DNA from: Azolla caroliniana
Taxonomy: Eukaryota > Plantae > Polypodiophyta
Length of the DNA: 64,000 nucleotides
Direction of reading: 5' to 3'
Assembly (NCBI GenBank): GCA_043228905.1
Contig: JBHGNT010000013.1
Span: forward strand, 10,106,001 to 10,170,000
Below, piece after piece: positions 17,231 to 61,264 of this stretch. The notes below the pieces were generated by a model. The model ran no database searches. It saw only the letters and a program-made list of their open reading frames with translations, and had not been told where the DNA came from. Both the position numbers and the translations under genes were made by a program. Positions within the stretch are counted from its first letter, which is position 1, and every line of letters begins with the position of its first letter.

Positions 17231-17295
17231 GCAAGTGAGGATTCAAACCTTGCACCTCCTAGTTAAGAGTCAATAGGCTTACCATTAAGCCATGA
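17231..17295 (-). promoter_or_regulatory. tRNA-like Pol III A/B-box module inside LTR E (also 54244-54310 and 60737-60804)
   Basis: Minus strand TGGCTTAATGG...GGTT(C/T)GAATCC with tRNA spacing and a D-stem GGCTT/AAGCC. Confidence 0.7.
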
Positions 17296-17715
17296 CATTT
17301 AGTTGAGTTTATATTTCTATCATTGTAGTTTTAGATGGAAATTCTCATACATGAGAGCTAAAATGAGTGACATGGTTATCATGCACCACATGTAATACAT
17401 GAGCGCCAAATGACAAACATGCATTTTATGTATGTCTTGTACCCTCAAATGCATCATATGCATGAGAGCATCTATAAAAGAAGGGATGAAAAAGAAGAAG
17501 GGTTAGGCTTTTTTTGGTTATGAAATTAAGAAGAAGAGAATTCGTTATCAAATTGATTGTCTAACTTGTTTCTTAAATCTAAAATCAAGAGTTCAATCTT
17601 AATCTCTCTTTCAATCTAGCTTAAATACTTTCTCGCTAAAGCTTGCGCCAACTTCAAGTCCTTCCGGTCCAGAACCCCGGCGGTTCCGCCTCATGATCCG
17701 CACGACATAATTAAG

Positions 17716-17733
17716 TGGTGAACCCGACGTGAA
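17716..17733 (+). promoter_or_regulatory. Primer binding site complementary to tRNA-Trp
   Basis: TGGTGAACCCGACGTGAA is the reverse complement of the plant tRNA-Trp 3' end TTCACGTCGGGTTCACCA (recalled sequence). Confidence 0.85.
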
Positions 17734-18914
17734 AGAGGCGGTAGGAAGGATCAAGCCGAGATTAATACTTGGAGATGGCGTCCTTAAGCAACCAAGCGGG
17801 AGAGCTCGAAAGGATGATGCTAATTGTCGAGCAAATGATGAGATCTCGGGACAACGACGCGAGCGTGGAGAAGGCTGTCGATCGTGTCGTAGAGCTCAAG
17901 GGCCAATTCGATGGAAGGAACGTTATGAAGTTCCTTGATGCATATAGAAGGGAGATGAATCAGAGGGACGTGTCCGAAGCACGTCAAATCGCAAGCTTCA
18001 AGAGAGTTGTCGCCAACAACGTTCAAAGACGTGTCATCGAACTTCAAGAAGGTAAGACAACATGGTTCGAGTTCGAGAAAATGATATTAACGGAGTTCGC
18101 AACTGAAGACTCAACAAGGATGACTTGACATGCCCTGATGAAGTGGATAGAGAAGAAGAATAAGAAGATGAGTGCCTCGAGGGTGTACGATGAATTCGAC
18201 CGGATGTTTGGCCGTCTCCCCAACATCGATCAAGTGCTACTTGAAGAGGACAAGACTTTGTACTTCTTGAAGGCCGTGGACATGAAGGATAGACGGGAGT
18301 TGGGGACTCTTCTCGAAGATGATACCCAAGCGAACGGGCTTGTGGCGGACTGGGTTGCGGTAAAGCGAGCATGCATTAGGCTCGACAAGCGTCGTCAGTG
18401 GGTTGATGACACCGACTTGGCGGGATCGATTGTTGCGGAGAAAACAAGACAACCGAAAGTAGCTGAGCCGCCCAAACAAAGTAGTCCGGAAGAAAAGAAG
18501 ATTGACGACAACATCATCGAAGAACTGGCAAAGAAGTTTGAGGCGGTCACGCTAGCCAACATGAATCATCGGGGGCCCAAAGGAAAAGAACCCTTTAGAT
18601 GCGTGTGGTGCGATAACATGGACCACATGAGAAGGGATTGCGCGAGCCTTCGAGAGGCGATCCGACAAAATATCGTGTACATAGATGACAACATGATCTG
18701 CTCGAGCGAGACTAGAAGACCCCTGTGGGTGAATTTCGGAAGAGGAGGAATGAAGAAAACTATGGAGGATGCCGATGCGACTCATGTGGATGCGATGCAC
18801 TATGCTGCGTCGGCCGGAATAAGAGTTGGGAAAGACAGAAATGAAGCTACGGAAGTGGGAGCCAAATTTTGGTCTTCCGTTCTCGAGTATGAGAAGAGGG
18901 GGAAGGTCACAACA

Positions 18915-57700: not shown

Positions 57701-57777
57701 GCCGGACGTGTTGTGTGTGCTCCTCTAAGTTAGAAGAAAAAACTAGGATGTCGTCTAGATAGATTACCACGAAATGT

Positions 57778-60030
57778 TGTAATAAACTAATTAGTTTAGA
57801 ATATGTAAATAGAAAAATCAATTATAAAATAAAACGCTACACTATATGAACAAGTGCACCCCAAAAATAGGGTGCACCTATAACCACCACATTTGCTCTC
57901 TGTGTGGTCGGTTGGTTCTAGAGAGAGACAAAACTATCATTTAATAAAGTTTCTTGTTCTCTCTCTCTCTCTCTCTCTCTCTCTCTCTCTCTCTCTCTCT
58001 CTTTCCATTTCTTATTTCCTACATGGTATTAGAGCGGTGAAGGAGTCCAACCCCACCAAGAATTGTGTCACAGTGTTAATAACGAACGTGTGAATTAAAG
58101 AAACGATTTTCGACCATGTCAAACGTTGGAGTGATAGCAAATGTGGCGGCAAATGCTACCCAAGTATCGTCTCACACTTATAACATTGAAAATTTGACTG
58201 ATAAAAACTATCAACCATGGCGTATGACCATGGAAATTATATTAGAACAACATGACTTGTTAAATATCGTTGATGGAACCGACGTGTGCCCCGACATTAA
58301 TGTCCCCACAAATGCACTTGACGTGCAAACATGGAAGCGATGTGATTTAAACGCTCACTTAGAACTTCTCCTTCATATGGAGGACACACTTAAGCAAAGT
58401 GTGAGAACCTTGACTATGTCCAAACAAATATGGGAATCATAGATTAGAGGCTGATTACCTCCATACGGACGTTACGTCCCAAGTTGCAAATTTAAAAACT
58501 TTAATGAATATGAATATAAATGAAAATGATGATGTTGACACGTTTGGTTAAAAATTGGAGACTTCAACATGATGATGTGATCCTTTCAGGACTTAGTTTG
58601 CCATTTTCCGTTCAATCCACCCTCTTATTAGCCGCCCTACCCCCATCATGTCAACCATTTATAAGCACAAAATCCACATCAACCAACATTAGTGTCCCAA
58701 CGTTAGTGACATCAATCTCACAAGAAAACATACTTTGTAGGGCAATAAATCAACCCCCCACATCTCACACCACACTTTATATCAAACATCCTAATTACAA
58801 TAAAAAATCTTACAATAAACCTAGATCAACATACCAACCTAATAACTCCAAATTTTATTCACGGACCTCTAAATTTAATGATTCAAGGAATCATAACAAA
58901 TCTAGGTTCCTTAGATCCTTTTGCAAAAATTGTCAAAGGAGTGGACATGAAATGAAATATTGTTATAGGAATTCTAACAACAATGGGAAAAGAACATATA
59001 AAGAAGCCCAATATTACAATGCATAACATGATGACTACGATCAAAATAATGACATATGTCATAATGATCAAAATTCCAATGAGGATAATGAAGATTCTTT
59101 CATTGCCTTCATGGCCCTCACTTCATTTAACAACTCTCCCACTTCAATGTCACCTCACCTCAAGGGTTGAATGGCTCAAAGACTATAAGGTCTTAGAACA
59201 TCCTTTCCTGATGAGATTTGGGAACAATGGGGTTGAATATGCCCTTGGACATGGGACTGCCCATCTTGAACTCTCTGATGGGAAATTCATTGAAATCAAT
59301 GAAGTTTATTGTATACCTAACATAGCAAAAAACTTGATATCTATCAATAAACTCACAAATGATAATTTACATTCGTCGAGTTTTATCACAAATATTGTAT
59401 CATTCGTCATAAGACACCCTCTGGACAAGGCTATGTCGTTAATTGTCCACGACAAGGATGTCTTTACCTTTTAGGCCGCTTGGTGGTACCTGCTAAAGAA
59501 ACACACCATATAGATGATTCAAACACATCAAACTATGTGACCTTACTATGTCACTATTGATTAGGTCACTTAAACCATCAAACAATGGTTCACATGGCCC
59601 AACAACATATAGCAATTGGGTTTAGTCTTCCTAGTAAAACGAAACTATCCCTTTGCGGAGGGTGTATATTTGTAAAACTCTCTAACTCCCCATTTCCATC
59701 CCATCCTACAACGACCACTAAACCCCTCCAACTAGTACACACAGATATATGTGGTCCTTTGTTTACCCCCATCCTACTTGGAAATGTATATTTCCTAACA
59801 TTTATCGATGACTTTACTCGTTTCACGATGGTCACGCTTCTAAAGACAAAATGTACCGATCAAGTCCTTGAGAAATTCAAAGCCTATCATAAACTTGTAA
59901 CAAACCAACAAGATTTACCCCTTAAAGTACTCCAATCAGATAATGGTGGAGAATTCAAGTCCCAAAACTTCCAACTTATTGCCAAAACCATGGGATTCAA
60001 CAACGGTTTACCATCCCATATATACCTCAA
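57778..60030 (+). mobile_element. Decayed Copia J: short LTR 57778-58023, PBS, gag-PR-INT fragments
   Basis: TGTA...TACA, TGGTATTAGAGC, IENLTDKNYQPW, VHTDICGP, QSDNGGEF. Confidence 0.85.
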
Positions 60031-60066
60031 CACAATTCACGGGCTGAACGATTGTTTACAAACCGT

Positions 60067-61264
60067 TGTCGTGAAAATTTTCGGCAATAGTGTGAAAATC
60101 CCATAAAACGTACGAAATCGAGTATGAATCACATAATACAATAATTGTGAAGATAACATTTTAAATAAATTTAATATCTAAGTACAAAATGATGGAGGTT
60201 TCGAATGCACTTTATTACACGAGAAACAGACAACTAAATGTCAAGATATGAGGGTATAAAGTTTGTGAAAGGAAAAGGGAAAATTGTGAGATATCCCACA
60301 TAGGCACGACAAATACGGCTCTCATCATATATAAGGTAGAGCAAAAGATATTATCTTTGTGTCTATGTGTGGAGCATAGAGAGTTCAAGGTAACTTGAAC
60401 TAAGAGTGGAGGTGGGCTAGCTACTCGCAAAGGGTTTTGGCCAACCAAAACCGGACCGGTGATGAAGCCGATGATCCGGCGCCGGTAAGACGACGGCATC
60501 CGGCAAGGCACCGGTAACCGACGACATCCGGCGGCGGCACCGGTATCCGGCGCCGGTAAGACGACGGCATCCGGCGAGGCACCGGTATCCGGCGCCGGTA
60601 AGACGACGGCATCCGGCGAGGCACCGGTAACCGATTGCATCTGGCGGCAACACCGGTATCCGGCATTCGACGAACCAACGTCCGGCGACTAGATAAATAA
60701 ATATATAAATATATATACATATATACATATACGAGAGCAAGTAAGGATTCGAACCTTGCACCTCCAAGTTAGGAATCAATTGGCTTACCATTAAGCCATG
60801 CTATTTAGTTCAAATTATATTTCTATCATTGTACTTTTACATGTAAATTCTCATACATGAGAGCTAAAATGAGTGACATGGTTATCATGCACAACATGTA
60901 ATACATAAGCGCCAAATGACAAACATGCAATTTATGCATGTCTTGTACCCTCACATGCAGCATATGCATAAGAGCATCTATAAAAGAAGGAAGGGGGAGG
61001 AGAAAAAACACGTTTTTTTTTATGAAATTAAGAAGAGGAAATTCGTTATCAAATTGATCGTGTAACTTATTTCTTAAATCTAAAGTTAAAAGTTCAATCA
61101 ATCTCTCTCAATCGTGTAATCTCAACTTCTCTCTTTCCCAATCTATCTTAAGTACTTTCTCGCTAAAGCTTGCGCCAAAGCTTGTACCGACTTTGAATCC
61201 TTCCGGTCCAGAACCCCGACGGTTCCGCCTCACGATCCGCGCGTAGTGACGGATCTTCACGACA
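60067..61264 (+). mobile_element. Solo LTR of family E (1198 bp) with an expanded 42-bp CCGG-rich repeat
   Basis: TGTCGTG...CACGACA, 4-bp TSD CCGT (60063-60066, 61265-61268). Confidence 0.93.

Follow-up and report, generated by a model that had tools for sequence, protein, structure and literature searches.

We analysed a 64,000-nt window of the genome of the fern Azolla caroliniana (GenBank assembly GCA_043228905.1, contig JBHGNT010000013.1, forward-strand positions 10,106,001 to 10,170,000), which is a nest of Copia and Gypsy retrotransposons. A tRNA-derived module with the A and B boxes of an RNA polymerase III (Pol III) promoter recurs in many Gypsy long terminal repeat (LTR) families and is kept there as a promoter-like DNA element, as a first-pass annotation of this DNA had proposed. 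We regard the module as a real feature under apparent selection, and consider it highly likely that selection acts on it. Our overall reading, towards which we lean without holding it firmly, is that the tRNA-derived module in the unique 3' (U3) region of these LTRs may be a docking site for TFIIIC and TFIIIB that opens or shields the LTR promoter.

Modules in the window and in related loci

The window was scanned for textbook A and B boxes, with motifs taken from general knowledge, at spacings of 42–58 bp and against a null of 25 local dinucleotide shuffles of the same DNA. Six matches with at most one mismatch were found, compared with a mean of 0.04 (maximum of 1) per shuffled window. The seventh, in a solo LTR termed S, has three mismatches, a level at which 12 matches were observed and 6.6 were found in the shuffles, i.e., chance level. 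A profile from which its relatives had been left out still gave it 23.9 bits, the null maxima being 12.4 bits in pol DNA and 16.7 bits in 2.1 Mb of shuffled LTR sequence, and a profile scan of the whole window returned exactly these seven matches and no further one. All seven modules listed by the first-pass annotation are present, and the string it quoted is exact for the copy at 54.2 kb.

Three of the modules belong to family E, which is represented by three separate insertions: a 5' LTR with primer-binding site (PBS) and gag, a 3' LTR after integrase and a polypurine tract (PPT), and a solo LTR. The 5' LTR of this Phygy-like Gypsy element (E1, 16719..17707, plus strand, ACGT at its left flank) carries its module at 17239..17292 on the minus strand (0+1 mismatches, spacing of 43). 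The PBS of E1 (17716..17732, plus strand), which we take to be of the tRNA-Trp type, is found identically in 38 of the 43 PBS matches of related loci. In Phygy-like elements, the LTR end is separated from this nearly invariant PBS by 0–8 bases of spacer (17708–17715 in E1), and a pre-PPT motif is conserved among them. The 3' LTR (E2, 53703..54706, plus strand, behind a PPT and with ACGT at its right flank) has a module at 54252..54305 (minus strand, spacing of 43), in which both boxes are perfect consensus and which matches tRNA numbering exactly from T8 to C62. The family E integrase open reading frame (ORF; 51948..53630, plus strand) showed no chromodomain match; its nearest named relatives, from the liverwort Riccia sorocarpa, reach at most 63% identity over most of its length. 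The solo LTR (E3, 60067..61264, plus strand, with the 4-bp target site duplication (TSD) CCGT) bears the third module at 60745..60798 (minus strand, perfect consensus, spacing of 43). E1 and E2 were considered as the two ends of one element, ACGT being common to both, but their flanks are different host elements and this arrangement was rejected.

The remaining modules lie in two chromoviruses, M and I, and in solo LTR S. The 3' LTR region of M (21498..22330, plus strand, 3' end left unset) contains a 356-bp tandem duplication that spans ORF end, PPT and LTR start; one module, 15 bp away from the 5' end of the LTR, lies at 21513..21567 (minus strand, 0+1 mismatches, spacing of 44) and a non-independent duplicate, in the second copy, at 21869..21923 (minus strand). 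The 3' LTR region of I (30330..30910, minus strand) begins at 30910, its far end being left unset, and has its module at 30812..30866 (plus strand), 44 bp from the LTR 5' end. The ORF end of element I (30911..31396, minus strand), with integrase SH3 and chromodomain, fixes the orientation of the element. The C-terminal chromodomain was identified by Pfam Chromo in I and by eye from the translation in M; neither a 5' LTR nor a reverse transcriptase (RT) was identified for these two elements in the window. LTR S (40055..40777, minus strand, 4-bp TSD GCGT), which is 76–80% like the LTR of the Phygy-like locus L029, has its module at 40611..40664 (plus strand, 1+2 mismatches, spacing of 43). The label "Phygy-like" was given to E and S from their target sites, absent chromodomain and LTR similarity. 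Their target sites fit 4-bp NCGN, with CCGT (E3) and GCGT (S) duplicated and ACGT as single flanks of E1 and E2; as a solo LTR, S has no internal region. The LTRs adjoin gag, integrase or chromodomain ORFs, and the related loci described below carry a pol of RT, RNase H (RH) and integrase (INT).

The seven window modules all run against the direction of their own element and are placed downstream of the 5' end of the LTR but upstream of a TATA-like box, in agreement with the antisense U3 placement claimed at first pass. Comparison also confirmed that the four LTR families cannot be aligned to one another. Because the two M modules are one tandem duplication, the independent families number four (E, S, M and I), and the same orientation in 4/4 gives p = 0.125.

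Of the 120 pol relatives listed, 29 were aligned, and a metagenome scan with this alignment retrieved 80 related loci, 71 of which come from one assembly series. The query was a Phygy-like pol, and the loci therefore cover relatives of the Phygy-like elements, not those of chromoviruses M and I. Scans of viral contigs found no relatives. LTR-containing segments totalling 53,080 bases (redundant, and including some flank) gave 19 matches with at most two mismatches versus 0.07 in shuffles, and the pol regions of 77 of the 80 loci (193,742 bases; three permuted contigs left out) gave none. A profile scan of the loci yielded 36 matches in 23 of them; matches with three mismatches in gag or pol were rejected, as the profile does not recover them. 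Antisense orientation, presented as universal at first pass, proved not to be so: 12 of the 19 matches are antisense and 7 are sense. When LTRs that share sequence were merged in a hand tally, some 12 independent modules faced away from the TATA box of Pol II and some 3 faced it.

Distant branches (E, L011 and L040; L022, L069 and L028) have U3 segments in common around the module, which suggests LTR exchange. Three loci outside the main assembly series with a long LTR (L048, L055 and L076) had no module and L059 gave a weak match only, so the spread demonstrated is that within the main host group.

Sense modules downstream of the TATA box or near the PBS were seen in L039, L080 and L040, and weakly in L011. 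Two antisense modules in U3 and a sense module further 3' occur in L039 (6520–7054), L080 (3154–3727) and L040; in L039 and L080, antisense and sense modules bracket the Pol II promoter, and L080 has a local duplication of its AGGT–B-box segment. L079 has a sense module in the 3' part of its LTR (1245–1500), the end of which resembles the window Copia LTR at 29662–30110, the Copia identity being taken from ~65 bp. An antisense B box at the contig end of L031 (6124–6220), 50–60 bp into the LTR, possibly belongs to a truncated module and was left unscored. The modules of L041 and L042 were rejected as part of their own family, since they sit in a nested LTR of the L040 type.

Conserved boxes and variable fold

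Mean pairwise identity over 21 module groups reached 0.61 for the A box and 0.78 for the B box; at positions 44–47 it was 0.86, and elsewhere 0.30–0.40. Positions outside the scan consensus are also kept, namely A44 (88%), G45 (90%), G46 (95%), T47 (95%), A38 (83%) and T33 (69%). In 13 homologous pairs, positions 44–47 (AGGT) were identical at 50/52 bases versus 276/365 for the other interior positions (Fisher p = 2.5e-4, the pairs being non-independent), and identity in the flanks was 563/746 and 255/375. When the spacing was freed to 25–89 bp, 27 of 47 matches fell at 43 or 44, as is canonical for tRNA genes, and none at 39–42 or 45–54; this spacing is kept though the module-bearing LTRs have many indels.

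These values bear on the idea that the modules are passengers, i.e., SINE (short interspersed nuclear element) heads or pieces of tRNA that ended up inside LTRs and multiplied along with these, which we judge quite unlikely. Module interiors only 30–40% alike would agree with it, as would the T-rich DNA that follows some modules and the remark, in the available part of Kojima (2024, PMC10886601), that among Repbase LTRs "not a few" are similar to a portion of a tRNA. However, AGGT and the spacing are kept while adjoining bases drift, the position relative to TATA is narrow, and only a head of ~55 bp is common to unrelated families. By eye, the flanks of 29 modules share no SINE body or tail and show no TSD of their own, features that old captures could have lost. 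No free module copies outside LTRs were found within the 64-kb window.

The tRNA fold has not been retained. ARAGORN called no tRNA in the window or in 24 related loci, and Rfam returned no tRNA match up to E = 10 over the whole window and none at the gathering threshold in 11 related loci. Only on a 131-bp scan did the Rfam tRNA model, proposed for such a scan at first pass, give the I module a weak 15.5 bits, below the gathering threshold of 29; the E2 module is not listed by the model. Stem pairing over the 21 groups was at the level of shuffled columns (D stem 27/84 vs 29.3; anticodon stem 18/105 vs 24.6; T stem 45/105 vs 44.5), and a conserved cloverleaf was accordingly rejected. The anticodons are free to vary across module groups. 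Of the tRNA-like fold described earlier, the paired D-stem stands in family E only, and the CCT or CTT anticodon is not kept across families.

Enriched terminators were rejected as well: TTTT occurs within 45 nt past the B box in 11 of the 21 groups and is no commoner than in shuffles (8.2, p = 0.14, and 11.0). A fixed upstream TATA or CAA fared no better, TATA-like matches being scattered and the CAA listing unreliable. One rival reading is that the module works as a Pol III promoter that fires antisense and matters through its RNA or its transcription. It might, for instance, dampen expression of the element itself, supply small-RNA silencing, or drive transcription of the flank (5' LTR) and of the PPT/integrase end (3' LTR). 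We rate this reading as unlikely. The kept A box and exact spacing, unneeded for a B-box-only site, argue for it together with AT-rich upstream DNA (0.58–0.89) and the TTTT runs where they occur, but those runs are at shuffle frequency, no RNA structure is conserved and sense copies exist.

That the antisense sequence gives the genomic RNA, at its 3' end, another site for docking the primer tRNA is very improbable, and for the Phygy-like families largely refuted. The antisense position in U3 does give the genomic RNA a tRNA-complementary sequence, and a precedent exists: HIV-1 reportedly has an antisense tRNA-Lys3-like sequence in U3-R, said to have been described by Piekna-Przybylska and colleagues in 2010 and proposed to give the primer a further place to dock; the same has reportedly been proposed for Ty3 with its bipartite PBS. 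However, the PBS implies the 3' 17 nt of the primer, and module positions 63–72 match it at 49/160 bases over 16 Phygy-like groups. The primer has A62, which implies T52, but the modules have G52 in 14/16 groups and A62 in 1/16. Families with the same PBS have unrelated interiors, and sense copies cannot act in this way.

Promoter context and possible roles

From the A box of antisense modules to the TATA-like box, the distance is 115–271 bp (median of 165), with 7/9 values within 155–197, a strict TATA being present in 9/14 LTRs; a looser TATA pattern gives 155 bp in I, 162 bp in L024 and 146 bp in L043. In E2, five clustered CATGCA/TGCATG motifs are followed by a TATA-like box (54394..54495, plus strand) that lies 181 bp from the module A box. 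At least two such motifs occur in 12/14 antisense-module LTRs versus 6/23 others (p = 6e-4, the rows being related), nearly all of them between module and TATA; M and L043 are without them. The clusters (54394–54478 in the window, and in many related LTRs) stand just upstream of TATA, are partly palindromic and could form an enhancer; we take the motifs to be RY-type sites for B3 factors. Chromovirus M has TTC..GAA motifs between module and TATA (21640–21660 and 21995–22015), which to us look like heat-shock elements.

Boxes and spacing kept without RNA structure or terminator fit a DNA site for TFIIIC, and the module probably binds this factor, as predicted from its sequence. We propose that it was captured from a tRNA gene or a SINE head and then spread by LTR recombination, with its boxes and their exact spacing kept and the tRNA fold lost. 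It would offer TFIIIC an oriented place to dock, and TFIIIC would in turn set TFIIIB down on the side towards the promoter of the LTR itself, where enhancer and TATA box lie. Docking would hold these two adjacent sequences open and protect them from the heterochromatin around them, and any Pol III transcript from the module would be a by-product. The available parts of two papers describe that TFIIIC reads A and B boxes and recruits TFIIIB within ~50 nt upstream (PMC13578239), and that tRNA genes are nucleosome-depleted, with TFIIIC organising chromatin at extra TFIIIC (ETC) sites apart from transcription (PMC11346459). That the module serves the chromatin of the Pol II promoter is a prediction on which we remain nearly evenly divided. 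Even so, a promoter-opening or barrier role ranks, tentatively, above antisense transcription, passenger status, an integration or landing-pad function and primer docking.

The integration function would consist of TFIIIC near the LTR tips tethering the integration complex or positioning the locus, or of the module serving as a landing pad or decoy for Pol III-targeting retroelements, and appears improbable. The B box is indeed ~10–45 bp from the LTR tip in M, in I and in the TGTCA-starting LTRs nested in L009, L067 and L020, where the antisense module sits at the very tip as in the two chromoviruses. In contrast, the module lies 50–680 bp inside the Phygy-like LTRs. No module-bearing LTR of the window has an insertion beside its module, and the nested insertions in L009, L067 and L041/L042 are not upstream of the module, although this is no systematic count.

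Several observations weigh against a docking role serving the promoter. The module is dispensable: an integrase tree was built for E and the 31 loci that had sufficient LTR and integrase sequence (the other 49 loci were omitted), and of its 32 Phygy-like rows 16 have the module and 16 do not, L001, with an integrase 90% identical to that of E, being among the latter. Its distribution on the tree requires 8 changes versus 11.0 for shuffled labels (p = 0.06), a patchiness that also suits passengers. No module was found in chromovirus K (22679–29006), in an Athila/Tat-like LTR (35890–36344, label inferred) or in the four Copia LTR families of the window, and with K, the Athila/Tat-like LTR and the 16 module-free rows lacking it, the module does not characterise Gypsy as a whole. 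Sense modules occur in U3 of L012–L015 and L022, the last having both orientations, and independent origins are fewer than matches because families share U3 segments. In open-access literature listings, no paper on tDNA-type barriers in plants was found.

The conservation of the boxes is also partly ascertained by the consensus scan itself, and pairs in the acceptor stem are marginally more frequent than in shuffles (47/147 vs 37.8, p = 0.03, one of five tests). In favour of the docking role, three DNA runs show a peak of summed contig depth over the I module, 6–37 times the level of the bins to either side (13,800–26,000 versus 1,570 and 710 in the adjoining bins of run X1), to which host tRNA genes, SINEs or other families may contribute. 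A run presumed to be RNA yielded five contigs of low depth there; contigs reveal neither strand nor expression, and nothing was drawn from them. Another contig, a close one that joins the module of I to its PPT and ORF end, could come from this very locus and was not taken as support.

A bolder version of the docking proposal, possible but doubtful, is a chromatin shield that autonomous elements carry with them: a TFIIIC/TFIIIB site facing outward, an enhancer cluster of CATGCA motifs and a TATA box would move as a U3 cassette between lineages (at least two Gypsy and possibly Copia), sometimes with a second module across the promoter, and would keep the element transcribable deep inside heterochromatin. 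If so, it would be a tDNA-type barrier that works in a plant and is encoded by a parasite.

What keeps the promoter of an LTR retrotransposon working when the element is nested in heterochromatin is an open question, and the module offers a defined 55-bp element with natural pairs of close relatives with and without it (E and L011 versus L001). It extends Pol III promoter capture from mini-elements to autonomous elements, and its sense copies suggest a route by which Helenus-like TRIMs (miniature retrotransposons with terminal repeats) could arise. Repeat-rich plant genomes may also owe it a large number of predicted TFIIIC sites. More than 7500 tRNA genes are cited for Azolla filiculoides in the available part of PMC13578239; LTR-borne tRNA-like modules could contribute to that count, though none here was called by ARAGORN or Rfam.

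Neighbouring features and known systems

A plastid-like insertion lies at ~43.7–47.4 kb of the window, with a match to NADH dehydrogenase chain 6 at 44993–45538 and peptides that we recognise, as an assumption, as psbE-, psbF- and psbL-like; its Pro and Ser codons are suggestive of unedited RNA-editing sites. The repeats of an element termed Copia A (1283–1400 and 5599–5750) run beyond the LTR into PBS and gag start, which suggests a recombined tandem arrangement. GC-rich tandem arrays of the CCGG type and of variable length occur at 60496–60700, in the U3 of E3, and at 6175–6424, beside Copia A.

Pol III promoter capture in LTRs is known; conserved, mostly antisense modules of autonomous plant LTRs were not found described in open-access literature listings. 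The closest system is the Helenus group of TRIMs (TRIMp3), which, in the available part of Kojima (2024, PMC10886601), have tRNA-derived sequence inside both LTRs, just as the Gypsy LTRs studied here have tRNA-derived A and B boxes. The first-pass annotation, which was aware of no description of its modules, overlooked this group; of antisense modules in autonomous plant LTRs we found no account in the open-access literature. In both systems conservation is limited to boxes A and B, with no functional tRNA and no primer role. Helenus, with one plant family (Selaginella), differs in being non-autonomous and 311–1263 bp long, whereas the LTRs described here belong to protein-coding Gypsy elements that keep a TATA-like box. 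Its boxes are on the sense strand in supplement LTRs and are proposed to make the genomic RNA; here 7/7 window modules are antisense, with sense copies in some related loci, and unlike in Helenus there are sometimes 2–3 modules per LTR. According to the same source, the autonomous partners must use Pol II; only TRIMs were analysed there and non-TRIM matches were set aside, and the bare occurrence of tRNA-like parts in LTRs may be known to Repbase curators.

For the host elements, E and S resemble Phygy in the NCGN target preference and the lack of a chromodomain (Neumann et al. 2019, PMC6317226), a lineage described there from Physcomitrella only, and I and M resemble the aromatic-cage chromoviruses Tcn1/Galadriel in having a chromodomain (PMC2864245); the available parts of these papers mention no Pol III boxes for Phygy or Tcn1/Galadriel LTRs. 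The terms tRNA, Pol III, TFIIIC, B box and SINE do not occur in PMC11656987.

The HIV-1 U3-R sequence is, like the module, tRNA-like and located in the U3 of an autonomous LTR element, but it reportedly matches the element's own primer. Cassandra and Ajax TRIMs likewise captured a Pol III internal promoter in their LTRs, and Cassandra occurs in ferns; in contrast to the modules, theirs is 5S-derived (A, IE and C boxes) and sits in non-autonomous elements, the Cassandra promoter driving the element's own transcript (available part of PMC10886601). With tDNA barriers and ETC sites, as treated in the accessible part of PMC11346459, the module shares A/B-box DNA and, as predicted, probably a mode of action through TFIIIC on chromatin rather than through RNA. 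Those are host elements of yeasts and animals, whereas the module, with its consensus B box, is carried by mobile elements in a plant.

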